Positions 2,928 to 63,560 of a stretch of 64,000 bases of DNA are shown here, piece by piece. The DNA comes from a virus (taxonomy: Duplodnaviria > Heunggongvirae > Uroviricota > Caudoviricetes), in the IMG/VR virus record IMGVR_UViG_3300006167_000001, one strand, 5' to 3'. Every line of letters starts with the position of its first letter. The stretch's first letter is position 1. The position numbers and the translations under genes are program-made. The notes beneath the pieces were generated by a model that was given only the letters and a program-made list of their open reading frames with translations, did no database searches and was not told the DNA's origin.

Positions 2928-2990
2928 AGCAGTAAGCGTTTACCTGCGCTAAAAACGCAGGGCCTATTATGGAAAGGAGGACACTTTACT

Positions 2991-3352: not shown

Positions 3353-3387
3353 GAGGGTTTTTAATTTAGATTAGAAAGGAGTCGTGT

Positions 3388-3940: not shown

Positions 3941-4007
3941 TCCAAGGAGGGAGCGGCTAAACGGCGGCTCTCTTCTTTTCGCCTATTTCACAGGTCCTTT
4001 TACGGAG

Positions 4008-4298: not shown

Positions 4299-4310
4299 CA
4301 GGGGCTCTTC
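4286..4310 (+). terminator. hairpin terminator with stop codon in loop (early-module type)
   Basis: gagaggagccc-TAAca-ggggctcttc then ccTTTT. Prototype of a family repeated at ~3925, 5495, 5865, 6100, 6550, 7590, 8940, 9450, 10275 and 13165. Confidence 0.6.
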
Positions 4311-4468
4311 CCTTTTGCGCAGATTTTGCAACTTGTTTTGTGGAAAGGTGAACATATGCGAGACGGTATGTTCTGAAAAAGGTGTTGCCCTTGAAGGTTT
4401 AGCTGACGGCTATCGAGGTACGGAGCAACTTAATGGTTAAACGGCGAGCCGCCTGTCTTTCTTTTCTT

Positions 4469-4500
4469 CCGCAAATTTTGCAAATTGTATTATGGAGAGG
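4469..4500 (+). promoter_or_regulatory. conserved early intergenic motif CCGCA-N18-TATTATGGAGAGG
   Basis: ccgcaaattttgcaaattgtattatggagagg. Near-identical copies at 4598-4634, 5151-5182, 9506-9538, 10307-10340 and 14317-14348. Degenerate copies at 2955, 4845, 5285, 5540, 5890, 6135, 7325, 7630, 8195, 8975, 10005, 12962 and 59876. Confidence 0.6.
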
Positions 4501-4872
4501 AAATAAGGGAAACTTTGAAAAGCCAAATTGTAAGACATGGTCGGCCGTTACATTCGCAAGGATGTGGCCCCAATTCATGCCCTCTCTTTTTTTGTTTCCG
4601 CAGATTTTGCAAATCGTATTATGAGAAGGAGAGGAAATCCGACGGGTTGTGACCAAGCAACAAAATTGTTTGGTTTGGATGTTCGACTCATCCACGGCTC
4701 GTCTTTCTCTAAGAAAATGGATAGATGCGGGTGGAAATCCCGCGGTGAGACACGAAGGCGTACCGCCAAGTAATAACTTAATAAAAGATGGTACCCACCG
4801 GGCAACGGTTTTCGTTGGGCCGACCCTGAAGTCATTTTCTTTTTATTTTTCGCCAAATACTCAACGGCCTTT

Positions 4873-5088
4873 ATGGAGGTGATTGATATGTTTTTGAACA
4901 AAGTTGAATCAATGAGTACAGTCACAAAGAAAGTCATTGACGATTTTAATCGAATGGATGATAAACAATTTATGGCAAAATATTTTTGCAGTAAGCTGAC
5001 GTATGCAAAGCGAGTTGCGAAGTATGGTGATCCGTACATGAAAAGTCCACTCGCTAAAATCGGAAAATTTTTTTATAAAATATTCTGA
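4873..5088 (+). CDS. hypothetical protein
   Basis: 71 aa. Its start codon is the ATG inside the conserved TTTATGGAGGTG motif. Confidence 0.45.
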   Translation: MEVIDMFLNKVESMSTVTKKVIDDFNRMDDKQFMAKYFCSKLTYAKRVAKYGDPYMKSPLAKIGKFFYKIF

Positions 5089-5325
5089 GGTGAAATCTAA
5101 GGAGCATGAAATCACGGAGAAGGGGTGTATTCGCAGCACCTCTTTTCTTTTCGCGATTTTTACAAATCGTATTATGGAGAGGAAAAAAGAATACCATCGG
5201 GTATGAAAGTGAAGAGGCTAAACGTGTGAGTATAAAATCTTTGCGCACATTAGATGTCTACACGGAAAGTCGTCTCTCTTTATTTTTCGCCAAATACTCA
5301 ACGGCCTTTATGGAGGTGATATTTT

Positions 5326-5520
5326 GTGGAGGCCAAGAAACTCATTAGTGCGATTGGAACACTCGTTATTGTGGGGGCAGTATCAATGGCAGGAGCCGCA
5401 TTATGGACGAATGTTCTGGATGACAAAATCAAGCTGGTCCAAGCAAAGAAAGTGCATTCCAAATCAGATAAAGTTATTGTTGTTGACTTTAAGAAAGCAA
5501 GGAGGGAGACGGGCCGCTAA
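5326..5520 (+). CDS. small membrane protein
   Basis: GTG start 5 nt after GGAGGTGAT. TM ISAIGTLVIVGAVSMAGAALW. Confidence 0.45.
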   Translation: MEAKKLISAIGTLVIVGAVSMAGAALWTNVLDDKIKLVQAKKVHSKSDKVIVVDFKKARRETGR

Positions 5521-5565
5521 ACGCAGCGGCTCTTCCTCTTTTCCGCACGAATCTCCGCTTCCTTT

Positions 5566-5856
5566 ATGGATGTGAAAGTAATGAGACAAGTCATTCTTTA
5601 TGGAATTTCTGGAGCAAGTAGGGCCTATACAGTTCTGAATTACTTCTGTATCTACGAGGAATTCGTATCGATCAGCACTATCTTAGAGGAAGCGAGGCGA
5701 CTTCGGATGAGAAATCCGGATATCGAGCACGTTTACGCAATAGATAATCGATACGGGCTCCGCCGTGATTACAGGGAGAGCATGAAACGGAATAGTATCG
5801 AGAGCCATTACATTTTCAAGGATATTCTGGAAAGAGAAGGTATGCGAATTATTTAA
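5566..5856 (+). CDS. hypothetical protein
   Basis: 96-aa ORF after a motif copy. Confidence 0.5.
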   Translation: MDVKVMRQVILYGISGASRAYTVLNYFCIYEEFVSISTILEEARRLRMRNPDIEHVYAIDNRYGLRRDYRESMKRNSIESHYIFKDILEREGMRII

Positions 5857-5957
5857 CTACCGAGGAGGGTCCCGGCAGGGACTTTTCCTCTTTCCGCAGG
5901 AATGGCAGTTCCCTTTATGAGAGGCTTAGGCTTCATCTGTTATAAGGAGTGGAAACT

Positions 5958-6119
5958 ATGTTTACAAAATTGGAAATGGTCGGAGCTATTGCTATCAGCC
6001 TGTTCGGCGGATTCGCCATCGGCTACAGCAAGGCAAGAGAAATCTGTTTGCAAGCAATCATCACTGCTACCGGAGAGCAGAAGGAACCCGAGACAACCGA
6101 GAAAGAGGAGACGCCCTAA
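5958..6119 (+). CDS. small membrane protein (53 aa)
   Basis: ATG after GGAGTGGAAACT. Ends ...KEETP* inside a hairpin with TAA in the loop. Confidence 0.35.
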   Translation: MFTKLEMVGAIAISLFGGFAIGYSKAREICLQAIITATGEQKEPETTEKEETP

Positions 6120-6194
6120 ACAGGGGCTCTCCCCTTTTCGCACAAACCACAGCACCTTTTATGGAAGAATCCATATTTGAAAGGAGAAGCAACA

Positions 6195-6536
6195 ATGAGC
6201 ATGGAAAGGTTCAAAAGGTTTGTGGAGGACCATAAAAAGGAGCTGATTGCCACTACGGCGGTCGCTGGCGGGATCGTACTGGTGGTTTTCAGGTGCAAGC
6301 GCCACAGCGGGAAGATGGCCAAAGGCATATTCAGGAGGAAAGATATTTCGATCCCGGATGGCCTCAAGGTCTGGGACACGTCCTACCTCTGGGTGGAGGG
6401 AAAGTACCTGAACGCAATCGTCAACCGTATTCCCGTAGACGACCTGGGTGAACTGGGCAAGCAGTACATCAAGCATGGGCTCGCACAGCCTGGCGACATT
6501 GCAAGCGTCGTTATTGGAGTCGAGTATAACAAGTGA
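6195..6536 (+). CDS. hypothetical membrane-anchored protein
   Basis: RBS GAAAGGAG 8 nt before the ATG. TM TTAVAGGIVLVVF. Confidence 0.5.
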   Translation: MSMERFKRFVEDHKKELIATTAVAGGIVLVVFRCKRHSGKMAKGIFRRKDISIPDGLKVWDTSYLWVEGKYLNAIVNRIPVDDLGELGKQYIKHGLAQPGDIASVVIGVEYNK

Positions 6537-6649
6537 TTCTACCAAAGGTGGAGGCCGCTAACACAGCGGCTTTTGCCTTTTCACCGAGGTTGTTTGTACT
6601 TCAGCGTGGTTGTTAACTTAGAATAGCCGTTGAAAGGAGGTAGTCGTTA

Positions 6650-6901
6650 ATGAGTGAACAAGAATTTCATCCGGGTTCCGTTCCGGTTGCAGTAGCGGCC
6701 AGAGTCTATGGAAAAGATGCGTCTTGGGTTCGAGCCGGCATTGTGTCAGGATGGCTTCCGATTGGTAAGGCTACCCGAAACGGCAAACTGGTGACCAGCA
6801 TCAACGAGATAGACAGTCGGTACGGACGTATCAACTTTTACATCTCGCCCAAACTCCTCTATGAGGAAACCGGATTTTTATGGAAAGGAGAAAAGCGATA
6901 A
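6650..6901 (+). CDS. excisionase/AlpA-like HTH DNA-binding protein (paralog of 57922..58203)
   Basis: VAVAARVYGKDASWVRAGIVSGWLP resembles Xis/MerR-type HTH. ~75% identical to the downstream paralog, including the upstream TTAGAATAGCCGTTGAAAGGAGG. Confidence 0.55.
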   Translation: MSEQEFHPGSVPVAVAARVYGKDASWVRAGIVSGWLPIGKATRNGKLVTSINEIDSRYGRINFYISPKLLYEETGFLWKGEKR

Positions 6902-6902
6902 T

Positions 6903-7322
6903 ATGCCTACAAATGTACGACCCGAAGTATCCAAGAAGAATCCCTATTACATAGAGCGTGAGCGATACTACGAGCTGAAACACTTCTGCCGGCAGTATCC
7001 GATTTGGAAGAAGGCTCATGCGGCCCTTGATGGACTGAGCCGGCGACCTGCTGATTTGGAGTTGTTCAGCGAGACTGGAGAGACAAGCGATCCAACGTTC
7101 CGATGCGTAGCGGCCCGTGAACGCTACTCCAGATGGATGGGTATGGTTGAGCAGTGCGCTCGTGAAGCTGACCCCGAACTCTACAAGTATCTCATGAGCT
7201 ATGTTACGAAAGGAGATTGCTACAGCGTTCTCAAAATGCGCGACCATATCCCCTGCTGCAAGGATGTGTTCTACGAGACGGCCCGTAAGTTCTTTTGGCT
7301 CCTTAACAAAGTTCGAGACTGA
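6903..7322 (+). CDS. hypothetical protein
   Basis: 139 aa. RBS GGAAAGGAG. Confidence 0.5.
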   Translation: MPTNVRPEVSKKNPYYIERERYYELKHFCRQYPIWKKAHAALDGLSRRPADLELFSETGETSDPTFRCVAARERYSRWMGMVEQCAREADPELYKYLMSYVTKGDCYSVLKMRDHIPCCKDVFYETARKFFWLLNKVRD

Positions 7323-7390
7323 TTTGGCATCTTCCGCAGAAAATACATCCACCTTTATGGAAGACCCAATATTAGAAAGGAGTTTGACTT

Positions 7391-7567
7391 ATGAACCGTC
7401 GTTTTAACTGGATGGACAAGCCTGTCACCTGGGGAGGTTACTTTAAGCTGTGCGGCATTTGCACTGTGGTCGGAACGGCCATCGCTGCGATTGAGCTCAT
7501 CGTGTTTATGGAGCCCGCCTGGTGGAAGGCTACAAAGAACTTTGTGAGAAGACTGTTCGACAGATGA
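7391..7567 (+). CDS. small membrane protein
   Basis: 58 aa. RBS AGAAAGGAG. TM segment present. Confidence 0.4.
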   Translation: MNRRFNWMDKPVTWGGYFKLCGICTVVGTAIAAIELIVFMEPAWWKATKNFVRRLFDR

Positions 7568-7681
7568 ACTATCGGCATATAGGTCGGCCAAGAGGGAGGT
7601 TGTGGAAACACGGCCTCTTCTCTTTTTTATATTTTTGCTCGCACAATTTACAATGACCTTTATGGAAAGGAGGTTCGATTT

Positions 7682-7861
7682 ATGACTTACAAGCAAATTG
7701 AGGCCAGCAGAGAATTGCGGCTTTGGATCGGGCAGGTAATCGTACCGGCTGTCAGCGTGACGGCGGTAGTGCTTGCTAATCCTGACGTGAGAAATGCGGC
7801 TAAGCAAAAGCTGGACAGCATCAAGCAGAAGTTCCAGACCAAAAAGATCAGGGTCGTGTAG
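7682..7861 (+). CDS. small membrane protein
   Basis: 59 aa. RBS GGAAAGGAGG. Confidence 0.4.
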   Translation: MTYKQIEASRELRLWIGQVIVPAVSVTAVVLANPDVRNAAKQKLDSIKQKFQTKKIRVV

Positions 7862-7976
7862 CAGCGACCCGTTCTTTTATATTTTCCGCATATAGGTGAC
7901 TGTAATGTGTGGTAAATTGGTATTCTAAAAAATTCCCGGGTGGAAAATTCTGAAAAACAATTTTAGGAGGAATCCT

Positions 7977-8195
7977 ATGGAAATCGTAATCGCACTCGTA
8001 GCCGTCCTTATTGGCTTTATCATCGGTCGAGTCCTTCCCAGAGAGCGCCCCCTTGGCGATTTGAGGGTTGATCGGTCTGATCCAACTTGCGAGCCCTATC
8101 TTTTTCTTGAGTTGGGTACGGATGTCCATAACATCATGAGTAAGCGGTATGTTACATTCCGCATCAAAGTCGAAAACTTCCTGCCGCACGAATAA
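7977..8195 (+). CDS. small membrane protein
   Basis: 72 aa. RBS TAGGAGGAAT. Confidence 0.45.
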   Translation: MEIVIALVAVLIGFIIGRVLPRERPLGDLRVDRSDPTCEPYLFLELGTDVHNIMSKRYVTFRIKVENFLPHE

Positions 8196-8245
8196 CATCC
8201 GCTATTATGGAGCCCAACTCTAATATTTGAAAGGAGTAAAGCAAT

Positions 8246-8932
8246 ATGGCAGAGATCAAAAGTTTGTTGGACGGCGTGATCGAGCAGGAAATCCAAAACG
8301 TGGAGGCCCTGAGCTCTGGAACTGACGAGAAGTCGAAGGCAATCCAGAATCTCGCAACCCTGCACAAACTCCGTATCGAGGAGATCAAGGCCGAGACCGA
8401 GGCGGAAGAGAAGCGTGAACGCCGGGTTATGGACAGCGAGCAGCGTAAAGCGGAACTCGCTCTGAAAGAAAAGCAGGCTACCCAGCAGGAGACCCAGCAT
8501 CAGGCTGAGCTCTCTATCAAGGAGCGCCAGGTGGATAGTGCCGAGGCAGAACGTAAGATGAAGGACGAACAGTTCAAAGCTGAACTCGCCCTGAAGAAGC
8601 GTCAAGCCGACGGCGACACCGCTGAGCACAAGTTGAAGGAGAAGCAGAGTGAGACTGAGTCTGGGCATAAGGGTGCCGAGCTTGCTCTGAAGGAGCGGGA
8701 GCTTGACAGCAAGGATGCTGACCGTACCCAGGAGGGAGAGCTTCAGAAGCGCCAGGCCCGGGATCAGATGGTCGACCGGTGTGTGAGAGCTGGTGTGGCG
8801 GTTGGAGAACTGGTACTGCCGTTGGTATTCTACGGCATCTGGATGAACAAGGGTTTCAAGTTCGAGGAAACCGGTTCGTTCACGTCGACCACATTCAAGA
8901 ACTTGCTGAATCGCTTCAGACCCACGAAGTAA
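8246..8932 (+). CDS. coiled-coil repeat protein with C-terminal TM anchor
   Basis: Tandem AELALKE(K/R)Q heptad-like repeats (x4). C-terminal hydrophobic VAVGELVLPLVFYGIW. Confidence 0.55.
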   Translation: MAEIKSLLDGVIEQEIQNVEALSSGTDEKSKAIQNLATLHKLRIEEIKAETEAEEKRERRVMDSEQRKAELALKEKQATQQETQHQAELSIKERQVDSAEAERKMKDEQFKAELALKKRQADGDTAEHKLKEKQSETESGHKGAELALKERELDSKDADRTQEGELQKRQARDQMVDRCVRAGVAVGELVLPLVFYGIWMNKGFKFEETGSFTSTTFKNLLNRFRPTK

Positions 8933-9097
8933 AGGGTAAGGCTACAAAAGCGGAGAGGGCGCGGAGATTTCGCGCTCTTTTCGTTTTCGCCATTTCTACA
9001 GCGCACTTTATGAGGAAGAAGAGCTCTTTTACCTCGACTATTAGCCAAGAGTGGAGTATAATACTATACAACACTTCTGGACTACATCAGGAGGTAA

Positions 9098-9432
9098 TGA
9101 AAGTGCGTAAAAAGGGTAAAGAGATCATTCGGCCGGTAGGAGTTGAGATCAGGGAGTATCTCAATGACGGCTGGGGTATCTGCAACAACTGCGGAGCGCT
9201 TATGGATGAGGAAATCAGGGATAGAATTGGAGTATTCACCTGCCCGGCATGTGGCTGGGAGTGCGATGTTATGGATTATGAGTACGAGGAGGAAGACACT
9301 ATGGAACTCGTACAGGATGAAAGAGGTGACGAGTACCTGATTCCGAGAGATGATATGCCGCCCGCGGGGTGCAGAGCTTGTGGAGGTCCATATCCCTACT
9401 GCAAAGCATCTTGCAAGATGTATGACGACTAA
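9098..9432 (+). CDS. zinc-ribbon protein
   Basis: CNNCG...CPACGWEC plus CRACGGPYPYCKASC. Confidence 0.5.
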
Positions 9433-9647
9433 GCATTATCAAAATGGAGGAGAGTCCTGGAAAAGCCGGGGCTCTTTCTCTTTATCTCTGAACTTTGTGA
9501 GGAGATTCGCAGATTTTGCAAATCGTATTATGGAAAGGAAGTATGAGAGACGCATGTTGTTGGTGAAAACCCAACCATCTACGAGGAGTGCGATCCTCCC
9601 TCGTAGCCTTTTCTTTTTATTTTCTTGGAGGGATTGTGATGCGCTAT

Positions 9648-9998
9648 CATTTCGAGAAGCCGGCTGTTTCGCTGTCGATGTATGGTCGGCGTTACATTTG
9701 CAACCATCCGGTGTATGACAGTTGCACCTTGTTCGAGATTGATGAAAAGGGTTTAGCTGTGATACAGCAGAGATTTGATCCTAAGACAAAGAGTACATCC
9801 TGGACAGAGGTAGACGCCTATTTGACCGACGTTTTATATTTGCACCCCAAGTTCAAGGAGTTCTTTGACAGTCGGGCCAGAACTTGTACGGACGGCCTCT
9901 ACCCCACTGTAACAATTCGGCAAATCATGTGGGCTTTGAAAATGAAACCTCTGCCGAAGCAGACATGGGAGACTGTGTTCGATCGAAGAGAGATTTAG
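9648..9998 (+). CDS. hypothetical protein
   Basis: 117-aa ORF after a motif/RBS. Confidence 0.5.
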   Translation, partial: HFEKPAVSLSMYGRRYICNHPVYDSCTLFEIDEKGLAVIQQRFDPKTKSTSWTEVDAYLTDVLYLHPKFKEFFDSRARTCTDGLYPTVTIRQIMWALKMKPLPKQTWETVFDRREI

Positions 9999-10055
9999 CG
10001 CTAATTCCACAGCTCCTATTATGGATGCCAATACCTACGAAAGGGGTTAAGGAGT

Positions 10056-10271
10056 ATGGATGAGATGAAACTTGAATCGAAATGGATAAGAGGAATTGTG
10101 TCAAAACTTATCAAAAAAATCCTGCGTGATAAATCAGGCTGCAACGTAGATGTTCAGCTTAATAATTTCCGCACGACTGTTATTGATGAGAAGACGCACG
10201 TTCATCTGGATATTGAACTGGATCTCAGCAAAGATGAAATTGACAAACTGTTAAAGGGCATTGGTCTTTAA
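10056..10271 (+). CDS. hypothetical protein
   Basis: 71 aa. RBS AAGGAG. Confidence 0.45.
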   Translation: MDEMKLESKWIRGIVSKLIKKILRDKSGCNVDVQLNNFRTTVIDEKTHVHLDIELDLSKDEIDKLLKGIGL

Positions 10272-10339
10272 AGGCAGAGCCGCGTAACAGCGGCTTTTGT
10301 CTTTGTTCCGCAGATTTTACAAATCGTATTATGGAGAGG

Positions 10340-10411
10340 AGACAGTTAGCTCAGTTGGTAGAGCGCAACCTGAAATGGTTGAGGTCATCGGTTCGAGTCC
10401 GATACAGCCTC
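10340..10411 (+). tRNA. tRNA-Phe(GAA)-like element with aberrant anticodon loop (possible pseudo-tRNA)
   Basis: Canonical D arm TA-GCTC-AGTTGGTA-GAGC and T arm ATCGG-TTCGAGT-CCGAT. Anticodon stem CAACC/GGTTG encloses only 6 nt (TGAAAT; GAA at 10372-10374). Acceptor stem has 2 mismatches (A3-C70, A5-A68). Directly preceded by the conserved early motif. Confidence 0.5.
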
Positions 10412-10445
10412 TCTAATTTTTTCGTCGAGGAAAGGAGAAACAGGA

Positions 10446-10631
10446 ATGAGAAAAGAAATGAAGCCGATTCTCATCGGCGCATTGACCGCAGGCGTCATCA
10501 TTGCGGTTGGTGTTGGGTTTCATGCATGGACCATCAAAACTATCCCTTATTCCTATCGTCAGAATCTCTTAGATGCCGTTGACTATCTCGCCGGCAAAAA
10601 TGTTTTCAACAGAGTCGATTCATTACAGTAA
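10446..10631 (+). CDS. small membrane protein
   Basis: 61 aa. TM ILIGALTAGVIIAVGVGF. Confidence 0.4.
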   Translation: MRKEMKPILIGALTAGVIIAVGVGFHAWTIKTIPYSYRQNLLDAVDYLAGKNVFNRVDSLQ

Positions 10632-10654
10632 AACAATGAAAGGAGAAAATCAAA

Positions 10655-11113
10655 ATGGAAATTAAAATCGTAGGAGAAGTCAAGTTCAGAAATCGGGCCG
10701 TCAAGGTCTATGGGGATTTGGATGCGCCCCTCTTCAAGGCTGCGGACGTCGCCGATCTGGTGGAGTACGGCGAGGGTAACGTCTGGAACCTTGTTCGTCT
10801 CTGCGAGGAGGACGAGCATATGCTCCTTCCGCTCGTAGTCGCTGGGCAGAAGCGGCAGGTAACCTTCATCACCGAGACCGGCCTCTACAACGTCCTATCC
10901 CAGAGCAGAAAACCTCTCGCCAGAGCATGGCGGCGTGTCGTTCACGAGGAGCTGATTGCGCTCCGGCGGTCCCAGGGTAAGAACGTTGCCGAGAAGTTCG
11001 ACGAGTGGGATCACCTGGCCGACAACATCTACTTCGATGAGGAGCGGGGCTGTCTGATGCGCTCTGTCACCGTTCAGGGCGGCGACGTTGAGCAGGTTCC
11101 GTATGAGCCCTAA
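10655..11113 (+). CDS. Bro-N domain antirepressor-like protein
   Basis: FRNRAVKVYGDLDAPLFKAADVADLVEY...GLYNVLSQSRKPLARAWRRVVHEELIALRR matches the BRO N-terminal/KilA-N architecture. Confidence 0.75.
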   Translation: MEIKIVGEVKFRNRAVKVYGDLDAPLFKAADVADLVEYGEGNVWNLVRLCEEDEHMLLPLVVAGQKRQVTFITETGLYNVLSQSRKPLARAWRRVVHEELIALRRSQGKNVAEKFDEWDHLADNIYFDEERGCLMRSVTVQGGDVEQVPYEP

Positions 11114-11141
11114 CTGATATTCTGCTGAAAGGAGAAAAATC

Positions 11142-11615
11142 ATGGGAAAGTTCATTAAAACTGCGCTGGTATTCATAGGAGGTATGACTGCCGGTGGCTA
11201 TTGTGTCGTAAATGCAGCTCTTAAGTTTTCAACGTTTACTACTGCGCTCAAAGAGGCCATCACAAAGAAGACCGTTGAGGTAGTGTATGGTGAGGAAACC
11301 AAAAAATTCAGTCAAGGGGCCGCGTATCATAGCGCCTATCACAGCGGCCACAAATTTCCGAATTGCTGCTTAACTTATTGCGACGATATCGTCTTTCAGA
11401 CTCGTGAAGATGCTGAAAACGCTCTTGCTACGATGCATGACATCATCAAGCAGTATGGTATTGTCAGTTTGGCGGATGTCTATGACATTATCGGGAAAAT
11501 TTCTCCGTCTTATGCCGCAAATAGGTATGGCTGGAGATCGCTTGATAAAGCGAAAGTGGTTCGATGCCGAGACGGATACTTCATTGAAATCCCGAAAGCA
11601 GTGGAAATCAAATAA
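11142..11615 (+). CDS. membrane protein with conserved C-terminal domain (paralog of 14762..15379)
   Basis: N-terminal TM. C-terminal FQTREDAENAL...QYGIVSLADVYD...ANRYGWRSLDKAKVVRCRDGYFIEIP is shared with 14762. Confidence 0.5.
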   Translation: MGKFIKTALVFIGGMTAGGYCVVNAALKFSTFTTALKEAITKKTVEVVYGEETKKFSQGAAYHSAYHSGHKFPNCCLTYCDDIVFQTREDAENALATMHDIIKQYGIVSLADVYDIIGKISPSYAANRYGWRSLDKAKVVRCRDGYFIEIPKAVEIK

Positions 11616-11617
11616 CC

Positions 11618-11980
11618 ATGAAACCCGAAATTGGTTATGACCATATTGTGATAGGTTCTTACATTGATGATCTTCTCAAGGATGTTGAGTGGAACTTAAA
11701 ACGTACTGCACTGCGAGATCCATACTTCAAGCAATTAAGCGTTGAGAAATTTGCGCTTGAAACATTACTCCAGGAAATCTTCGAGTATAACGGCATTGTT
11801 ACGCCGATAGAGGTACTTGAACGTTTTGCCCAGGAAACCGAACGATGCATTGTTGACAGCCATGACCCGAACAGCAGCTATACTTTTGAAGTGTCGAGAG
11901 ACACAGCGATATCCATTTTAGACGGACTCTATTTCGGATATTTGGAAGGAGAAAAATGCGGTGGATTTGAAAAACCATAG
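11618..11980 (+). CDS. hypothetical protein
   Basis: 120 aa. ATG overlaps the previous stop. Confidence 0.5.
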   Translation: MKPEIGYDHIVIGSYIDDLLKDVEWNLKRTALRDPYFKQLSVEKFALETLLQEIFEYNGIVTPIEVLERFAQETERCIVDSHDPNSSYTFEVSRDTAISILDGLYFGYLEGEKCGGFEKP

Positions 11981-12136
11981 AAACCTCTGGAACGATGTCC
12001 TTTATGGAACTCCGACAGCATCCTTAGCGGCTGCGAGCAAGCTTTATGATCTCGGTGAAATGAGCAAAAAGACATTCCAAGTCCTTGTCCTCGCAGCGGC
12101 CATCGAATCTACAGATACAAAAGGAGGTAAACGGAA

Positions 12137-12961
12137 ATGAAGCCTAAGCAAGGTCTGGTAAAGCAGACCGGAAAAGCCTTAAAAAAGGCGTCGCCGACAA
12201 TCTTGAGTATTCTCGGAGTTGTCGGCGTGGTTACAACGGCGGTTTTGGCCGTCAAAGCTACACCCAAAGCCCTTGAACGCATTGCAGACGCTAAAGAGGC
12301 TAAAAACCTCGAAAACGGCAAAGATTTGACCCGAATGGAGACGGTAGCAGCTTGCTGGCAATGCTATGTCCCTGCTGCCGCCACTGGAATCGCCACAATC
12401 GTGTGCATTATGGGCGCAAATGTCCTAAATCGGCGTCAACAGGCCTCTCTCACAAGTGCCTATACTCTACTTAACCGAACGTACCAGGACTATACAAAAT
12501 CGGTCAAGAACGTCTTCGGCGAAGAAGGTCATAAGCGCGTCTTGGAGGATATGGCCATTGAGCGGGTTCCTGAGAATCACACAATCTATACCGAAGGCAT
12601 GTTTGAATCTACTACCTTGGATTTTTGCATCCCCGAGGAGGAGCATCTGTTTTACGATGTTTACTCCAACCGGCAATTTGCTTCTACCATCGGAAAGGTG
12701 CTTCAGGCCGAATATCATCTGAACAGGATGTTCGCTCTGAATGGGAATGCCTCGCTCAATGACTTCTATAAGTATCTTGGACTCGATCCTGTTCCTGAAG
12801 GAGACGACATTGGATGGTGGGTCGATTTCGATAATGAGGCATATTGGGTCGAGTTCAATCATGCTGTCTCTTACATTGATGACGGGCCTGAACATCCGCA
12901 AGTCGAGTGCCTCATTATTGAGTTCCCGCAGCCGCCTGGTCTTCCGCCTCCCGAGGAGTAA
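12137..12961 (+). CDS. membrane protein, paralog family member 1 (VKATPKAL...CYVPAAxTG)
   Basis: 274 aa. Shares an N-terminal ~110-aa module with 13550 and 16028. Confidence 0.6.
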   Translation: MKPKQGLVKQTGKALKKASPTILSILGVVGVVTTAVLAVKATPKALERIADAKEAKNLENGKDLTRMETVAACWQCYVPAAATGIATIVCIMGANVLNRRQQASLTSAYTLLNRTYQDYTKSVKNVFGEEGHKRVLEDMAIERVPENHTIYTEGMFESTTLDFCIPEEEHLFYDVYSNRQFASTIGKVLQAEYHLNRMFALNGNASLNDFYKYLGLDPVPEGDDIGWWVDFDNEAYWVEFNHAVSYIDDGPEHPQVECLIIEFPQPPGLPPPEE

Positions 12962-13007
12962 TCCGCAGAAACAACACACTCTATTGTGGAAAGGAGGGTG
13001 AGGCTTC

Positions 13008-13178
13008 ATGGATAAGAAAGCTATCTTTAGAGTAATGTCCATGATCGGCATGGTCCTTGGGGCGGTGGGAACGCTGCTGTCCAACTGGGCCGACGATCGG
13101 GAACTTGACATGACGATTGACGAAAAGATCGATGAAAAACTTGCCGCCCGTGAAAGCGAAGAAGGTGAGGAGCCCTGA
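13008..13178 (+). CDS. small membrane protein ending in hairpin-encoded EEGEEP*
   Basis: RBS GAAAGGAGGG. TGA lies in the hairpin loop gaggagccc-TGAca-gggactcttc. Confidence 0.4.
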   Translation: MDKKAIFRVMSMIGMVLGAVGTLLSNWADDRELDMTIDEKIDEKLAARESEEGEEP

Positions 13179-13215
13179 CAGGGACTCTTCCCTTTTGGAC
13201 GTTGAAGAGTTGCAT

Positions 13216-13518
13216 ATGAACGAACGGGCAATTATGGCTCTGATGCGGATGCTGGGCATGTATGAAGATGCTCCACGTTCAGACTGGCCTCAGCATGAAC
13301 TTGAAGAAATCGCGTTCTCAAGATGCGCGATTGAAGAGGTTCTGCAACTGGTTTGGGATCATCCGTGGACCTTGGCATCCGACACCATCGAAGACTTCGC
13401 GCTAAAGATGGAGCTCTACAAGGATTCGTCTGTTACGGACGACCAAAAGCGGATATTTTCAGTTTTGGCGGAAACTGCCTGGGGAGTTCTGCAAGAGATT
13501 GAACCGCTTGAAAAGTGA
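13216..13518 (+). CDS. hypothetical protein
   Basis: ~100 aa from the first ATG after the hairpin. Confidence 0.4.
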   Translation: MNERAIMALMRMLGMYEDAPRSDWPQHELEEIAFSRCAIEEVLQLVWDHPWTLASDTIEDFALKMELYKDSSVTDDQKRIFSVLAETAWGVLQEIEPLEK

Positions 13519-13549
13519 CCTGTAAAATACATTTGAAAGGAGAAGCATC

Positions 13550-14314
13550 GTGAACAAGCAAACCTTCGTGAAGGCTCTCAAAGATGTTCCGAAAATCCTG
13601 AAGAAGCACAGTCCTGAGCTTCTGACAGGCATCGGTATTGCGGGGATGATCTTCACGACCATCACAGCCGTCAAAGCAACACCCAAGGCCCTCCAGCTCG
13701 TGGATGAGCGAGAAATCAAGGAGGGAAAACGCCTGACCAACTCGGAGATCATCAAGACTACCTGGAAGTGCTATGTCCCCGCAGCCGTGACCGGTGTGTG
13801 CTCTATTGGTTGCCTGATTGGCGCCAGTTCAGTCAATGCCCGGCGAAATGCGGCACTCGCCACCGCCTACACCATCTCTGAAACTGCCCTCAAAGAGTAT
13901 AAGGAGAAGACTGTTGAGGTCGTTGGCGAAAAGAAGGAACAGGCGATTCGCGATGCAGTTGCCAGGGACAAGCTGGAGAAGGCCCAGGTGACCAGTCGTG
14001 AGTTCATCATCACCGGCAAAGGGGAAACTCCCTGTTTTGACCCGCTCACCAATTCCTGCTTCAAGGCGGACATTGAGATCCTGCGGAAGGCGGAAAACAT
14101 CCTGAATAAACGGATGCGGGACGAGATGGTGATAACTGTCAACGATTTCTTACAAGAAATCGGCCTCGACCCGTGTGACGATGCCATCGGCGAAAACATG
14201 GGCTGGGATATTGATAAGGGGTACATCGACTTGGATTTCAGCTCGCAGCTGGTCGAGGGCATTCCTTATCTTGTCATCGGACATCACAATCCGCCCCGCT
14301 ACATCGGACGGTAG
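13550..14314 (+). CDS. membrane protein, paralog family member 2
   Basis: GTG start after GAAAGGAG. N-terminal module VKATPKALQ...WKCYVPAAVTG. Confidence 0.6.
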   Translation: MNKQTFVKALKDVPKILKKHSPELLTGIGIAGMIFTTITAVKATPKALQLVDEREIKEGKRLTNSEIIKTTWKCYVPAAVTGVCSIGCLIGASSVNARRNAALATAYTISETALKEYKEKTVEVVGEKKEQAIRDAVARDKLEKAQVTSREFIITGKGETPCFDPLTNSCFKADIEILRKAENILNKRMRDEMVITVNDFLQEIGLDPCDDAIGENMGWDIDKGYIDLDFSSQLVEGIPYLVIGHHNPPRYIGR

Positions 14315-14385
14315 CGTCCGCAAAAAATGCAAATCGTATTATGGAGAGATCCACACTAAAATCTTTAATAAAGGAGTAATTCAAA

Positions 14386-59560: not shown

Positions 59561-59961
59561 CCAGGAGGTGAAATATTATGGCCTCTAAAAAATCGAATGG
59601 CGGAAGGAAGGCCATTGCTCCTTCTGTGATATCTGCCTTGACAATAGCCCCGGCCATAATCAAAGCGATTGAGGAGCTAATGGATAAGTTTCCCCTTCTA
59701 TGATTGCCTGAACCTGTTGACAGATGGAACAGAAGTAGATATCAAAGGCTATCTTTCTTCTGAAGACACAGCATTCGCAATGAAGGTAAAAGAGTCGATG
59801 GAACGATCTTAACCCCTCCTGCCAAAATTATATTTTCAGAACAGAGACGCCGATTATGACGTCTCTGTTTTTCTTTCCGCCAAAAAAACAGACTCTTTTA
59901 TGGAGAGAAGAGGGAATGTGTCAAACTTTTTCTGTTATTTCTGTTGAAAGGAGGCCTTTTC

Positions 59962-60279
59962 ATGGCCAGGAGTTCCCGCTTGGAGAGTGGTTTTCAGGAC
60001 CGGCTCATCAATAAACTCAAAGATCTCTTTCCTGGGTGCATGGTCTTCAAGATGGACCAGATCCAGGGCATTCCCGACCTGCTTGTCCTCTACAAGAATA
60101 AATGGGCCTCCCTGGAATGCAAGAGGTCTGCGGGGGCAAAGAGACAGCCGAACCAAGAATACTACGTCGGGAAGATGAATGAGATGTCTTTCTCTCGTTT
60201 TGTCTCCCCCGAGAACAAGGAGGAAGTGCTCAATGAGCTCCAGCAGGTCTTTGCAGAAAAGGAGGACGATGAATTGTGA
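59962..60279 (+). CDS. PD-(D/E)xK nuclease (VRR-NUC-like)
   Basis: GIPDLLVLYKNKWASLECKR gives D...E.K. Confidence 0.5.
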   Translation: MARSSRLESGFQDRLINKLKDLFPGCMVFKMDQIQGIPDLLVLYKNKWASLECKRSAGAKRQPNQEYYVGKMNEMSFSRFVSPENKEEVLNELQQVFAEKEDDEL

Positions 60280-60839
60280 CCTTTAGCTTTAACCGTCATC
60301 CGAATTTGGAAGGTCAGCACGCCTTCCTCAGCGCAAGCAACTATCACTGGATCAATTACAGCGAGGACAAGGTTGAGGAAACCTACTCCAGATGGAGAGC
60401 TACTCAAAAGGGAACCAAACTTCACGCATTCGCTGCTGATTGCATCCGCCTCGGGCAGAAGTTGCCCAGATCGAAGCAGACACTGAATATGTATGTCAAC
60501 GATGCCATAGGCTTCAAGATGACACCGGAACAGATCCTATACTATTCACCCAACTGCTTCGGAACGGCTGACGCAATTATATTCCGGAACGACTTTCTCC
60601 GCATCCACGATTTGAAGACCGGAGAAACGCCGGCCAAGATGGAGCAGCTGATGATTTATGCGGCGCTCTTCTGTCTGGAGTATGGTATCAAACCCAGCGA
60701 GATCGGGATGGAACTTCGTATTTACCAGAATGATAAAGTTCTCTGCCACAACGCCACTGTGGAAGACATCTTCCCGATCATGGACCGTATCATCACATTC
60801 GACAAAATCATCAACAGAATGAGGGAACAGGAGGGGTAA
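60276..60839 (+). CDS. PD-(D/E)xK-like nuclease family protein
   Basis: GTADAIIFRNDFLRIHDLKTG. Confidence 0.45.
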   Translation: MTFSFNRHPNLEGQHAFLSASNYHWINYSEDKVEETYSRWRATQKGTKLHAFAADCIRLGQKLPRSKQTLNMYVNDAIGFKMTPEQILYYSPNCFGTADAIIFRNDFLRIHDLKTGETPAKMEQLMIYAALFCLEYGIKPSEIGMELRIYQNDKVLCHNATVEDIFPIMDRIITFDKIINRMREQEG

Positions 60840-60842
60840 AGC

Positions 60843-63560
60843 ATGAATCCGATTCAGGACGATGACATCCTGATGCACTATGGCGTCAAAAGACGTTCTG
60901 GGCGCTATCCGTGGGGTTCCGGCGACAACCCCTTCCAGCATGGCGGCGACTTCCTCAGCCGCGTCGAGGAGCTTCAGGCCCAGGGCAAGGCTGAAAAAGA
61001 GATTGCCGATGAGCTGAAGATGTCTACGACGGATCTGCGGATGCAGGTTCGGGTGGCGAAGCATGAGCGGCGTATGGTTCTGGCCGACCGGGCGAAATCT
61101 TTGAGAGAAGAGGGTAAGACCCTTGACGAGATCGCTAAAATCATGGGTTACAACAACGACTCCTCGGTTCGGGCCCTTCTCAATGAGAACACCGCCTCCA
61201 ACAAAAATAAAGCGCGGCAGACTGCGGAACGGTTGAAGCAGGAGCTTGCAGAAAAAGGCGCCCTTGATGTTGGCACCGGGGCTGAGCGTGAGCTTGGCGT
61301 TTCCAGCGGTGTCCTTCAGGAGGCGCTTTTCATTTTGGAAACCGAAGGGTATAACCGATTCGGCGTTGGTGTTCCTCAGGTCAACAATCCGAAGAACCGC
61401 ACCATTACGCCAGTTATATCCGTACCGGACATTGACCAGCGTCAGGTTTATCAAGACCTCGCTTTGGTCAAGTCCGTCGGAGAATATCACAGCACTGACG
61501 GCGGAGAGTCCTGGGATAAGCGAGAATACCCGGCCAGTATCGGCTCTGACCGGGTAAAAATCCGCTATGCCGAGGAAGGTGGCCTTGGGAAGGACGGCGT
61601 TATCGAGCTTCGTAGAGGCGTTGCTGATTTGGACTTGGGCGCTTCCCACTATGCTCAGGTCCGAATAATGGTTGATGGAACCCACTATCTTAAGGGTATG
61701 GCCATGTACTCCGATGACATGCCGGATGGTGCAGACATTATATTTAACACCAATAAACGATCCGGAACCCCGAAGATGGATGTTCTGAAAAAGATCCAGG
61801 ATGACCCGGACAATCCCTTCGGGGCGTTTATCAAAGCGAATGGTCAAAGCTACTACCCCGATCCTAATGGTAAGTACATCGACCCTGAGACTGGAGAGAG
61901 GCGGTCGTTATCGGCAATCAACAAATTAAAAGAAGAGGGAGACTGGGATAGGATGAGTAAAAACTTATCTTCTCAGTTTCTTTCTAAGCAGCCCATCAAG
62001 CTGATTCAGACCCAGTTGGACTTGACCTATGCGGATGCGGCGGATGAGTTTGCCGAAATCTGCTCTCTGACCAACCCTACTGTGAAGAAGAAGCTGTTGA
62101 TGGACTTCGCCGACGAATGCGACTCCGCCGTCGTCCACCTGAAGGCCGCGGCACTCCCCCGCCAGAGCACCCAAGTTATCTTGCCGCTCACGGCGATGAA
62201 GGAAACCGAAATCTACGCCCCTAACTACAGGGACGGCGAGAAGGTTGCCCTTGTTCGGTACCCCCATGGCGGAACATTTGAGATTCCCATCCTGACTGTC
62301 AACAACAAGAACAAGTCAGCTATTTCTATTTTGGGCCCCCGGACTCGGGATGCGGTAGGTATCAATGCCAAGGTTGCGGAACGGCTCTCCGGTGCGGACT
62401 TTGATGGCGACCAAGTCGTTGTCATTCCTACCGGCGGGAGGGTCAACATAAAATCGACCCCCGCCCTTGCCGGATTGAAGGACTTCGACGCCAAAGTTGA
62501 ATACTCCACCGAAGGCAAGACCGGTATCCGGCTTCTCTCAAAAGAGGCCACCCAGATAGAGATGGGGAAGATTTCCAATCTCATCACCGATATGACGCTA
62601 AAAGGGGCCCCCGAGAGCGACATCGTGAAGGCCGTCAAGCACAGCATGGTGGTCATCGACGCCGCCAAGCACAAGTTGGACTACAAACGGTCCGAGCAGG
62701 AGAACGACATCTCCACCCTCCGTAAGAAGTGGCAGGGCTACATTGACGAGGCCGGCAAGGAGAGAGGCGGCGCTTCTACTCTGCTGTCTCGCCGCAAGCA
62801 GGACGTTGAGGTTCCTGAGCGCCAGGGCAGCGGCCGTATCGACAAACAGACCGGCAAGGTCGTCTACAAGGAGTCCGGCCGTACTTATCTCGACAAGAAT
62901 GGAAGAGAAGTTCAGGCCACGACCAAAATCAAGCTGCTGGACAAGACCGAAGACATTCGGACATTGTCTTCCGGCACCTTGGTTGAGGATGCCTATGCTG
63001 ACTACGCCAACAAGATGAAAGCTCTGGCCAACAAAGCAAGGCTGGAATACGTTGCGACGCCGACTTTGGCGCGCTCTGCCAGTGCTGCCAAGACTTATCA
63101 GCCTGAGGTGGATCGTCTTACTTCGGCGCTCCGTCTTGCTCAGCTCAACGCTCCTCGTGAGAGAGAGGCTCAGCGCATCGCCAACGCCCGTGTCAAGGCG
63201 AAGATTGAAGCCAACAACATCACCGACAAAGATGAGATCTCCAAGATTCGCAGAGCTGCTATCAGCGACGCTCGTGTTGAGACTGGCGCAAGCGGCAAAG
63301 GAACTCGTATCTCTATCAGCGACGGTGAATGGGAAGCGATTCAAGCTGGCGCAATCTCTGACACAACATTGAAAGAGATCCTGCGATATGCCGACTCTGA
63401 CGTCGTCCGTGAACGCGCTACACCAAGAACAAGAACTGAGGTTTCCGAAGCTCGGGCAAACAGAATCAGAGCAATGGCGAATTCTGGTCATACAAATGCC
63501 GAAATCGCTGACGCTTTGAACCTTTCGCCTTCTGCTGTGTCGAGAATTCTCAATGAATGA
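60843..63560 (+). CDS. candidate single-chain RNA polymerase related to multisubunit RNAP beta' (YonO-like), with N- and C-terminal HTH modules
   Basis: VALVRYPHGGTFEIPIL...GADFDGDQVVVIP aligns with beta' ...NRAPTLHRLGIQAFEPVL...NADFDGDQMAVHVP. HTH-like EIAKIMGYNNDSSVRALLNE (N-terminal) and NAEIADALNLSPSAVSRILNE (C-terminal). Confidence 0.5.
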   Translation: MNPIQDDDILMHYGVKRRSGRYPWGSGDNPFQHGGDFLSRVEELQAQGKAEKEIADELKMSTTDLRMQVRVAKHERRMVLADRAKSLREEGKTLDEIAKIMGYNNDSSVRALLNENTASNKNKARQTAERLKQELAEKGALDVGTGAERELGVSSGVLQEALFILETEGYNRFGVGVPQVNNPKNRTITPVISVPDIDQRQVYQDLALVKSVGEYHSTDGGESWDKREYPASIGSDRVKIRYAEEGGLGKDGVIELRRGVADLDLGASHYAQVRIMVDGTHYLKGMAMYSDDMPDGADIIFNTNKRSGTPKMDVLKKIQDDPDNPFGAFIKANGQSYYPDPNGKYIDPETGERRSLSAINKLKEEGDWDRMSKNLSSQFLSKQPIKLIQTQLDLTYADAADEFAEICSLTNPTVKKKLLMDFADECDSAVVHLKAAALPRQSTQVILPLTAMKETEIYAPNYRDGEKVALVRYPHGGTFEIPILTVNNKNKSAISILGPRTRDAVGINAKVAERLSGADFDGDQVVVIPTGGRVNIKSTPALAGLKDFDAKVEYSTEGKTGIRLLSKEATQIEMGKISNLITDMTLKGAPESDIVKAVKHSMVVIDAAKHKLDYKRSEQENDISTLRKKWQGYIDEAGKERGGASTLLSRRKQDVEVPERQGSGRIDKQTGKVVYKESGRTYLDKNGREVQATTKIKLLDKTEDIRTLSSGTLVEDAYADYANKMKALANKARLEYVATPTLARSASAAKTYQPEVDRLTSALRLAQLNAPREREAQRIANARVKAKIEANNITDKDEISKIRRAAISDARVETGASGKGTRISISDGEWEAIQAGAISDTTLKEILRYADSDVVRERATPRTRTEVSEARANRIRAMANSGHTNAEIADALNLSPSAVSRILNE

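Follow-up and report, generated by a model that had tools for sequence, protein, structure and literature searches.

A predicted single-chain two-barrel RNA polymerase with helix-turn-helix modules and an associated promoter-like motif in a temperate gut-type phage

Analysis of the window, by which is meant the whole 64,000-nucleotide stretch of phage DNA considered here, located a cassette of genes at the end of the replication arm and immediately ahead of the packaging genes, comprising two putative nuclease genes, a polymerase gene and a small conserved gene (Table 1). The syntenic counterpart of the first gene is annotated VRR-Nuc in Mooshroom, RavenPuff and Damascus, and the order VRR-Nuc, Cas4-like nuclease, polymerase, small ORF is the same in FP_oengus, Tanis, Mooshroom, RavenPuff, ReqiPepy6 and Damascus. 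The small gene occupies the position after the polymerase gene in every relative examined, and its product is a possible polymerase cofactor. Elsewhere in the window, the idea of a PurZ/Z-genome attached to the gene at 41576-42796 was unsupported, the scores of 111 bits for PurA and 29 bits for PurZ both being far under the cut-offs.

Table 1. Coordinates of the features of the polymerase cassette and of the class-1 motif in the window.
Feature	Position	Strand	Remarks
Early region with 20 more class-1 copies	767..14344	+	first 767-792, last 14319-14344
Class-1 motif copy (CGCCAAAAAAACAGACTCTTTTATGG)	59878..59903	+	965 nt upstream of the polymerase gene, directly before the cassette
VRR-Nuc-type endonuclease gene, cassette gene 1	59944..60279	+	PHROG 93, E=2e-15
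Cas4-like PD-(D/E)XK exonuclease gene, cassette gene 2	60276..60839	+	PHROG 3953, E=3e-83; Pfam DUF2800, PDDEXK_1; syntenic in relatives
Polymerase gene	60843..63560	+	ORF, ATG start, 905 aa; two-barrel RNA polymerase homolog with HTH modules (PHROG 4291)
N-terminal peptide HYG..R.SGRYPWGSG (aa 12-27)	60876..60923	+	predicted disordered; invariant in the family
Tandem N-terminal HTH modules (about aa 35-115)	60945..61187	+	8vd6 alignment, Cbp1 match, model helices
First beta-rich barrel (about aa 236-365), candidate beta-subunit-like DPBB	61548..61937	+	strand pattern; inferred boundaries
Second barrel (about aa 440-531), beta'-like DPBB	62160..62435	+	R472-Y-P474-H and metal-binding loop A518-DFDGD-Q524
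Long conserved helices past the catalytic barrel (aa 567-631; SNLITDMT, HSMVVID..KH)	62541..62735	+	model helices and invariant residues
C-terminal HTH (aa 867-905), resolvase/LuxR/sigma-region-4-like	63441..63557	+	Pfam matches
Small conserved gene, 87 aa	63577..63840	+	PHROG 4303; no Pfam/NCBIfam family matched

The list of open reading frames and the motif coordinates confirmed an earlier sequence-only reading in which the 905-aa product carries the heptad ADFDGDQ (aa 518-524, nt 62394-62414), for which the chance expectation of an exact match in all six frames of the window is about 2e-4. The motif RYPH lies at aa 472-475, within RYPHGG (aa 472-477, nt 62256-62273). One small correction concerns the gap from RYPHGGTFEIPIL to GADFDGDQ, which is 32 aa and not 40 aa.

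Profile searches matched the protein to PHROG 4291 ("RNA-dependent RNA polymerase") from aa 5 to 904 against profile positions 7-906 of 909 (E=0), and at least 80% of the query was covered in 249 of the 250 matching phage records. The family comprises 3,480 clusters at 50% identity. Hundreds of cultivable phages infecting Arthrobacter, Gordonia, Streptomyces, Rhodococcus and Lactococcus carry the polymerase, and further homologs are encoded on numerous publicly available viral and metagenome contigs. PHROGs and RefSeq apply the 'RdRP' label on grounds of homology. The window protein did not reach the gathering cut-off of Pfam RdRP PF05183 (12.4 bits vs 23.8, E=0.064; alignment over aa 510-616, overlapping the second barrel), which 33 of 51 divergent homologs matched at E<=1 (best E=6.7e-5) and which is the sole enzymatic family matched by homologs; an HHpred probability of 95.7% to RdRP was given by Koert et al. 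(bioRxiv 10.1101/842583). A family with HTH at both ends and an RdRP/YonO-like core had been predicted computationally (Ruprich-Robert & Thuriaux 2010, PMC2919709; Koert et al. 2021, bioRxiv 10.1101/842583), and it was taken for an RNA-virus-type RdRP in PMC13587820. No experimental study, biochemistry or transcript mapping of the PHROG 4291 family was found in the literature searched. Judged by its sequence, the window protein is a new member of this already predicted family with no difference in kind, while the structure model, the invariant N-terminal peptide and the gene-linked promoter-like motif had not previously been reported in the family literature.

In two of the three homolog searches, sequences at least 93% identical to the query crowded out the rest and added no usable alignment depth; the alignment used comprised 126 divergent sequences of 41-58% identity. 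Residues R472, P474, D519, D521 and D523 were invariant in all 126, giving the R-x-P and DxDxD signatures that make up five of the eight universal two-barrel residues (PMC2919709), and the invariance extended to the whole of S516-G-A-D519-x-D521-G-D523. The first barrel holds the invariant blocks YAQVRI, HYLKGMA and FNTNK, with R274, K284 and K316 invariant and D251 and D298 present in at least 90% of members. The beta-like barrel of the two-barrel superfamily supplies one Asp and two Lys equivalent to Rpb2 D837, K979 and K987, and these five conserved residues are candidates for the equivalent positions. From the model we infer the boundaries of the first barrel and its beta-like equivalence.

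The AF2 model of the 905-aa protein (pLDDT 90.5, pTM 0.86) showed the two-barrel fold that structure prediction was to look for, and its best Foldseek matches were QDE-1 (E=3e-9) and RDR2 (overall range E=3e-9 to 5e-4, prob 1.0). The global TM-score to QDE-1 was low, 0.30-0.33, and the likeness is therefore confined to the core. A TOPRIM/DnaG-like primase fold around the DGD, named beforehand as the case that would speak against a polymerase, was looked for and rejected. PDB sequence searches, whether started from the single protein or from profiles, found only HTH proteins; nothing significant was matched in the RNAP region (8h2n E=0.37; 7s00 E~1), and weak matches to the P23-45 TMP-RNAP and AR9 beta' fell in the second barrel. 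Helices past the second barrel were modelled at aa 567-586, 591-610, 614-620 and 623-631 and contain M574, G575, N579, L580, D583, A597, D606, K609 and H610, all invariant in the 126 homologs; we infer from them a candidate bridge-helix-like element. The PHROG 4291 match, the invariant catalytic residues and the predicted fold all support the reading as an RNA polymerase, an idea which is not new, and the protein is very probably a two-barrel nucleotide polymerase.

The HTH modules proposed to flank the core were found on both sides, and their number is three rather than two, a tandem N-terminal pair and one at the C-terminus. The HTH repeat protein 8vd6 aligned repeatedly to aa ~35-115 in PDB sequence and profile searches, where helices were modelled at aa 37-46, 51-57, 62-89, 94-101 and 106-113; the NCBIfam Cbp1 tandem-HTH match to these modules was under the cut-off (E=1.5e-6) and the Pfam matches to Sigma70_r4, HTH_18 and GerE were weak. 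The C-terminal module passed the cut-offs of HTH_7 (E=9.5e-7), HTH_24, HTH_23 and GerE, and was slightly under that of Sigma70_r4 (E=6e-5). Residues 1-31 had pLDDT <50 in both structure models. They include the N-terminal peptide, in which G14, S19, G20, R21 and G25 are invariant among the 126 homologs and to which DUF7211 is the only Pfam match, below threshold; the peptide is possibly a signal for partner binding or packaging.

The genome-wide conserved intergenic motifs that the sequence-only reading had mentioned are real. The class-1 motif is 26 nt long with the fixed register CGC-N8-CA-N7-TTATGG, also written CGC-N8-CA-N7-T(T/A)ATG(G/A), and was found in 23 copies in the window, all on the + strand, against 0.22 expected. 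Besides the copies listed in Table 1, two others lie at 29749 and 46237. The copies precede small early genes (with SD and ATG), a tRNA and the polymerase cassette, and often come after terminators. The words TTATATTT/TGATATTT (window, FP_oengus) and CATATTTGG (Tanis) were also over-represented and were considered as a second promoter class; the idea was dropped, more than half of the window copies lying within coding sequence.

The class-1 motif was also found in polymerase-bearing phages of Clostridia, Gordonia, Streptomyces, Arthrobacter and Rhodococcus, and partly in Lactococcus phages, with an identical register in FP_oengus, Tanis, RavenPuff and P092, although the P092 motif is without the CGC element. 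The strict pattern P1 missed RavenPuff and P092, which deviate from it by one or two bases, and both were recovered by a PWM, which over 80 viral contigs gave 167 matches on the + strand, 4 on the - strand and 1 in shuffles. A copy at most 1.6 kb upstream of the polymerase gene, in an equivalent position, was present in all 64 viral contigs with enough upstream sequence. Among the named phages this cassette copy, lying near -950 in actinobacterial as well as clostridial phages, was found in Tanis, Mooshroom, RavenPuff, ReqiPepy6 and FP_oengus and was not found in Damascus and P092. The control phages FP_Lagaffe, GTE2 and SPbeta had no match on the gene-coding strand, and a literature search for the motif sequence itself returned nothing relevant.

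We propose that a single-polypeptide two-barrel (double-psi beta-barrel) RNA polymerase would act as the transcription enzyme of the phage, with the phage's own double-stranded DNA as the presumed template and with catalysis depending on the Asp triad of the beta'-like barrel together with R274, K284 and K316 of the beta-like barrel. The enzyme alone would find the start site, using its HTH modules to read CGC and (T)ACA, the two upstream elements; the T/A-rich hexamer would be melted and transcription would start near the following G. In the window about 25 short terminator-bounded units would be driven in this way, including small early genes and a tRNA, and so would the VRR-Nuc/Cas4/polymerase cassette that encodes the enzyme, all without need of the host sigma factor. 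That the polymerase transcribes phage DNA is probable, whereas its recognition of the class-1 motif is put forward tentatively, and the link between motif and polymerase is correlative. The composite reading, a single-chain two-barrel RNAP transcribing phage DNA from the class-1 motif without sigma, is on balance the one we favour.

With a promoter of its own class before its own gene, an external trigger would be needed, a point against the proposal. Host RNAP may provide it at canonical promoters in the immunity region, or the enzyme may be carried in the virion, as the label of the phage 1706 homolog suggests. This homolog, orf75, was called 'structural protein' by its depositors, and the enzyme may therefore be injected to transcribe early genes; delivery in the virion, at which this GenBank label hints, is somewhat doubtful, and a review of lactococcal phages gives no information on virion proteomics.

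Among the alternatives, the one that survives best, which we regard as unlikely, is that the protein is a two-barrel polymerase serving other genes, for example middle or late ones, while the class-1 motif is an ordinary early promoter of host sigma-A or is bound by some other regulator of the phage. The polymerase-bearing phages share ancestry, and another conserved phage factor could therefore read the motif. The hexamer (motif positions 19-24) is a perfect TATAAT in actinophages such as Tanis and in P092, where host sigma-A could use it, and roughly one window copy in three has TATTAT; a -10 element at this hexamer would put the start at about the 5' end of the tRNA. Most gut-phage copies, however, have TTTTAT or CTTTAT, without A at position 2, and a sigma-70 promoter scan of the window called none of the class-1 copies, while genuine TTGACA-17-TATTAT sites occur elsewhere, with two canonical 11/12 sigma-70 promoters at the repressor/integrase end. 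The CGC and ACA elements at fixed spacing are unlike a -35 box and are kept between phages of Actinobacteria and Clostridia, and other phages of the same host species are without the motif. A role on another gene set would agree with the position of the cassette before the packaging genes and with YonO, which transcribes late genes according to PMC5467207.

It is less probable still that RNA is made on single-stranded or damaged DNA in a QDE-1-like manner, as primers or R-loops acting with the VRR-Nuc and Cas4-like nucleases in replication or recombination. The nearest solved structures are QDE-1 complexes with DNA or RNA templates and the linkage to two nuclease genes in the replication arm is invariable, yet the phage already has a 1421-aa fusion of primase and polymerase, the Lactococcus 1706 group keeps the polymerase without adjacent nucleases, and three HTH modules of sequence-specific type with a conserved dsDNA motif suit promoter recognition better. 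We consider it very improbable that the protein is truly an RNA-dependent RNA polymerase with phage or host transcripts as templates: the PHROG/RefSeq label and the Pfam RdRP match would suggest it, but the label mirrors fold homology to cellular RdRPs and not a measured activity, the phage in question is a dsDNA phage for which no RNA stage is known, DNA is what the HTH modules bind, and for the characterised phage members of the clade, YonO (PMC5467207) and the P23-45 enzymes (PMC10770324), transcription of phage DNA is described. It is hardly credible that the protein is no more than a DNA-binding regulator whose polymerase-like core is degenerate and inactive, as the name 'helix-turn-helix DNA-binding protein' in most SEA-PHAGES records might suggest, or that its DGD region is TOPRIM/DnaG-like, a version already effectively refuted.

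Single-chain two-barrel RNAPs represent the universal transcription enzyme in its minimal form, and to our knowledge few have been studied, namely YonO, crAss gp66, P23-45 gp64 and gp96, and QDE-1. The travelling of the motif with the polymerase gene across phages of two bacterial phyla is new here, and enzyme and conserved candidate promoter form a directly testable pair. A sigma-independent polymerase reading the class-1 motif, if true, would reveal a way of fusing promoter specificity to a two-barrel core and would give Gram-positive hosts a compact, orthogonal means of transcription; an enzyme-promoter pair of its own would free early expression from the host and could explain the crossing of phyla by this lineage. 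With due reserve, the family might be the first two-barrel RNAP with three built-in HTH promoter-recognition modules, sigma-independent, possibly injected, and reading a ~26-bp promoter common to phages of Actinomycetota and Bacillota.

Among known systems, the non-virion RNAP P23-45 gp64 / P74-26 gp62 has no detectable sequence similarity to the window protein; gp64 has about 590 aa, no HTH modules are mentioned for it, and its gene is transcribed by a tape-measure-fused virion RNAP (PMC10770324), a P23-45 feature of which there is no sign in the phage group of the window. Virion delivery is a possible analogy, through the 1706 label, with crAss-like phi14:2 gp66, P23-45 gp96 and N4 vRNAP; gp66 and gp96 were absent from the best 50 Foldseek matches of the window protein, and N4 vRNAP is a T7-like right-hand enzyme and unrelated. 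YonO of Bacillus prophage SPbeta is likewise a single-chain two-barrel RNAP and, with 839 aa, close in size, and the likeness to it claimed in the sequence-only reading holds for a distant relative with the same motif order and spacing (R492-S-P-H, 43 aa, FD535NDGD vs R472-Y-P-H, 47 aa, FD519FDGD) and not for membership of one family. YonO belongs to PHROG 8308 (E=0), which the window protein matched locally (aa 448-619, E=1.4e-5), while comparison of its family profile with the single YonO sequence gave an hhalign probability of 0.2% and no significant hmmsearch match. YonO has no HTH-family match in a PHROGs scan, a Cys-rich C-terminal segment instead and a different gene neighbourhood.

The two-barrel catalytic design is common to cellular multisubunit RNAPs, QDE-1/RDR, YonO, crAss gp66 and P23-45 gp64. 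Neurospora QDE-1 and plant RDR2 have the same one-chain layout as the window protein, with the beta-like barrel before the beta'-like one and a DxDGD loop, at 10-12% identity; they belong to RNA silencing and the window protein to a dsDNA phage, and terminal HTH modules, present in the latter, are not a described feature of QDE-1/RDR2. The closest relatives are the PHROG 4291 proteins, including 1706 orf75 and the 'putative RNA polymerase' of FP_oengus (53% identity), with full-length homology (E=0), equal length, the order HTH - two barrels - HTH, the DFDGD loop and the same synteny, and the window protein differs from the described members of this family in coming from a larger temperate gut-type phage.

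The ORF call gave the polymerase gene an ATG start and the length of 905 aa proposed in the sequence-only reading, and the claimed heptad ADFDGDQ was found at aa 518-524 (about 2e-4 exact chance occurrences expected over the entire window); RYPHGG occupies aa 472-477. The two blocks quoted in that reading had been placed 40 aa apart, and the measured spacing was 32 aa. Since one HTH is C-terminal and a tandem pair lies in the N-terminal region (approximately aa 35-115), the polymerase carries three HTH modules instead of the two claimed. The C-terminal HTH (aa 867-905) matched HTH_7, HTH_24, HTH_23 and GerE above the Pfam cut-offs and Sigma70_r4 slightly below.

The polymerase matched PHROG 4291 ("RNA-dependent RNA polymerase") from end to end (E=0). 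A tblastn search retrieved 250 phage records, all below 60% identity and 249 with query coverage of at least 80%; the top relative was Faecalibacterium phage FP_oengus (53% identity, annotated "putative RNA polymerase"), the remaining ones were siphoviruses of Arthrobacter, Gordonia, Streptomyces, Rhodococcus, Curtobacterium, Microbacterium and Lactococcus, and the majority of these homologs are annotated merely as "HTH DNA-binding protein". Thousands of homologs occur in metagenomes; when a profile was run against a library of 50%-identity clusters, 3,480 of these passed E<=1e-3 and 1,066 passed E<=1e-30. Alignment of 126 representatives (41-58% identity) revealed few invariant positions, among them R472, P474 and S516-G-A-D519-x-D521-G-D523 in the catalytic region; in the beta-rich region further upstream, R274, K284 and K316; within a helical block, M574, G575, N579, L580, D583, A597, D606, K609 and H610; and N-terminal G14, S19, G20, R21 and G25. 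The sole enzymatic family matched by Pfam was RdRP (PF05183), sub-threshold for the window polymerase (E=0.064) and recurrent among divergent members, 33 of 51 of which matched it (best E=6.7e-5). The peptide HYG..R.SGRYPWGSG (aa 12-27) was invariant among the 126 divergent homologs, was predicted to be disordered in both AlphaFold models and matched only DUF7211, a short Pfam family, below threshold; as speculation, it might be a packaging/docking or partner-binding signal.

The first AlphaFold model (21 sequences) was mediocre (pLDDT 70), and the second, from the 126-sequence alignment, was confident (pLDDT 90.5, pTM 0.86), with disorder limited to aa 1-31 and 218-223. Foldseek comparison of the second model with the PDB gave 14 significant matches, every one QDE-1 or plant RDR2 (best QDE-1, E=3.3e-9, about 920 aligned columns), after which came bacterial beta' and the largest subunits of Pol I, II and IV; the outcome with the first model was the same. 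No TOPRIM or primase fold was found among the PDB matches of the models, so the DnaG-like fold at the DGD region that the sequence-only reading had named as counter-evidence did not appear. As modelled, the polymerase shows a two-barrel fold with an intact and invariant active site, and its interpretation as a polymerase is supported by the full-length PHROG 4291 match, the invariant catalytic residues and the QDE-1/RDR2 fold.

Features of the window and class-1 motif copies in related phages (negative positions are relative to the polymerase gene)
Feature	Position	Strand	Remark
Class-1 motif, 20 copies	within 767-14344	+
Class-1 motif, other copies	29749, 46237, 59878	+
CGCAGATTTTGCAAATCGTATTATGGAGAGGA copies, no obvious start codon	4470-4700, 5152-5250, 9508-9600, 14319-14400		no Rfam match
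Integrase	1070-2305	-
Divergent sigma-70 pair	2890-2918/3291-3320	+/-	TTGACA-17-TATTAT with upstream TG; TTGACA-18-TATGAT
122-aa ORF	2967-3335	-
Direct repeat, 221 nt	6674-6894 and 57943-58163		75% identity, 51 kb apart
tRNA	10340-10411		Rfam 47.5 bits
PHROG 2152 paralogs (three, early region)	12137-12961, 13550-14314, 16028-16990		E=1e-74 to 1e-84; function unknown
Strand-biased octamers	17637, 24171, 33793, 36312, 46487, 61738 and others
Primase/DNA-polymerase fusion	19851-24116		1421 aa; PHROG 4210, E=0
Divergent adenylosuccinate-synthetase homolog	41576-42796		PHROG 1211, PurZ-like name
VRR-Nuc endonuclease	59944-60279		cassette gene 1
Cas4-like exonuclease	60276-60839		cassette gene 2
Polymerase	60843-63560	+	cassette gene 3
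Invariant N-terminal peptide	60876-60923
87-aa protein	63577-63840		after polymerase; PHROG 4303
Motif, window	-965
Motif, FP_oengus (Faecalibacterium)	-907	+	same motif, about 14 copies; one before tRNA, one before cassette
Motif, Tanis (Gordonia)	-961		11 copies, TCGCAG..AATACACGTCCTATAATGAGACCCC; register unchanged
Motif, RavenPuff (Streptomyces)	-1098 and -917		6 copies; register unchanged
Motif, Mooshroom	-948
Motif, ReqiPepy6	-946
Motif, P092 (Lactococcus)			9 copies, 3' half only, ACA-N5-TATAATGA; two before tRNA-like sequences

The window corresponds to the arm of a large temperate siphovirus that runs from integrase to replication genes; nearly all genes are on the plus strand, and many small genes, a helicase, a ligase and NrdD are also present. 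Members of this phage supercluster share the primase/DNA-polymerase fusion (FP_oengus 'helicase/polymerase', RavenPuff gp42, Tanis gp62). The order of the polymerase cassette is kept in FP_oengus, Tanis, Mooshroom, RavenPuff, ReqiPepy6 and Damascus, and the Lactococcus phages retain the polymerase and the small gene. The sigma-70 scan revealed a near-perfect divergent pair (both 11/12) at the repressor/integrase end, adjoining the 122-aa ORF and the integrase, which is probably a host-RNAP-dependent lysogeny switch. A 2-aminoadenine genome is conceivable but unsupported, because the adenylosuccinate-synthetase homolog scored nearer PurA (111 bits) than PurZ (29 bits) in NCBIfam, both far under the cut-offs.

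The genome-wide conserved intergenic motifs claimed earlier were recovered as the class-1 motif, a 26-nt fixed-register element of the CGC-N8-CA-N7-TTATGG type: CGCNNANNNNNCANNNNNNNTTATGG, with at most one mismatch, has 23 copies in the window, all on the plus strand, versus 0.22 expected. The copies are usually followed directly by a Shine-Dalgarno sequence with start codon, predicted terminators precede several of them, and none was called by the sigma-70 consensus scan of the window. One copy ends 5 nt 5' of a bona fide tRNA, which argues for a transcription signal and against a translation signal. This tRNA is GAA/Phe, as deduced from its anticodon loop CUGAAAU; ARAGORN gave it an odd 4-nt anticodon and gave its FP_oengus counterpart (L009, 2935-3006) a 2-nt one. 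Copies of the most conserved variant, CGCAGATTTTGCAAATCGTATTATGGAGAGGA, that lack an obvious start codon might give rise to long leaders or small non-coding RNAs.

With a single degenerate pattern matched exactly, the window showed 19 plus- and 1 minus-strand copies, FP_oengus 12 and 1, and Tanis 11 and 0, with about 0.2 expected; a 28-nt weight matrix trained with Tanis excluded found 13 and 0 in Tanis. Applied to 80 independent IMG/VR loci (1.23 Mb), the matrix gave 167 plus-strand and 4 minus-strand matches, and 1 in shuffles. Every one of the 64 loci whose upstream sequence reached 1.6 kb or more carried a copy in the 1.6 kb before the polymerase gene, most commonly at -900 to -1000; no copy fell inside the gene and two lay downstream. 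Damascus and P092 lacked a copy at the cassette position, and phages 1706 and CHPC971 showed a weak match alone (15.1 bits at -463). D-arm-like sequences follow two P092 copies, without an ARAGORN call. The controls FP_Lagaffe (host species of FP_oengus) and GTE2 (host species of Tanis) gave no motif matches, and SPbeta (Bacillus, 50 kb) gave none on the scanned plus strand and one matrix match on the opposite strand. Since the relatives carry the motif and the same-host controls do not, it tracks the polymerase-bearing phage lineage over two phyla and not the host. The class-1 motif is a strand-specific, conserved promoter-like element that misfits sigma-70 and stands in front of the polymerase cassette as well as early genes and tRNAs.

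Octamers over-represented with strong strand bias were also observed window-wide, in FP_oengus (L009, L010) and in Tanis. TTATATTT occurs 26 times on the plus strand of the window and once on the minus strand (about 43 times expectation), TGATATTT has 25 copies in the window and 36 in FP_oengus, and CATATTTGG-type words in Tanis number 13 on the plus strand and 0 on the minus strand. About 10 of the 26 TTATATTT copies are flanked by a terminator and a Shine-Dalgarno sequence, and more than half lie within coding sequence, one of them in the polymerase gene. These octamers may represent a further class of promoter, or else mark orientation.

The three HTH modules and the polymerase core form a single chain, which would transcribe the phage double-stranded DNA from class-1 elements independently of sigma, recognising their CGC and ACA elements through its HTH modules and initiating near the G following the T/A-rich hexamer. 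The link between polymerase and motif is correlative, and the carrier phages are of common ancestry. Use of the motif by host sigma-A is conceivable in the actinophages and P092, because the hexamer there is a perfect TATAAT, and the motif could also be read by another conserved phage factor. The polymerase may enter the cell together with the phage DNA. In Lactococcus phage 1706 (EU081845) orf75 (3501-6590), the polymerase homolog, and orf71 (1077-1430) bear the depositors' label 'structural protein', which for orf75 hints at detection in virions; both sit in the replication arm, orf75 far from the morphogenesis genes, and RefSeq labels orf75 'RNA-dependent RNA polymerase'.

The window polymerase is a fresh member of a family predicted earlier by computation. 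FP_oengus AUV56548 and its actinophage and Lactococcus homologs were described with an HHpred RdRP match (P=95.7%), a DxDGD loop and N- and C-terminal HTH domains, and RNA polymerase activity was proposed (Koert et al., bioRxiv 10.1101/842583). A gene of the family is just listed in a recent phage paper (PMC11536984) and was elsewhere seen as an oddity, "typically only relevant to RNA viruses" (PMC13587820). For this abundant and often mis-annotated family, on which no experimental studies were found in the literature searched, a defined candidate promoter is now available alongside the enzyme, so that the hypothesis can be tested directly.

The phage 1706 protein was counted among five YonO-like families with eight universal active-site residues (Ruprich-Robert & Thuriaux, PMC2919709). 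The YonO sequence, extracted from the SPbeta genome, scored E=0 against PHROG 8308, whose founding member it is, and the window polymerase matched that profile only locally (aa 448-619, E=1.4e-5); hhalign and hmmsearch of its family profile against YonO gave no significant match. The claimed YonO-likeness therefore holds at the level of the superfamily and not of the family: YonO carries R492-S-P-H, 43 aa and F-D535-N-D-G-D539, and the window polymerase carries R472 and D519 in like order and spacing.
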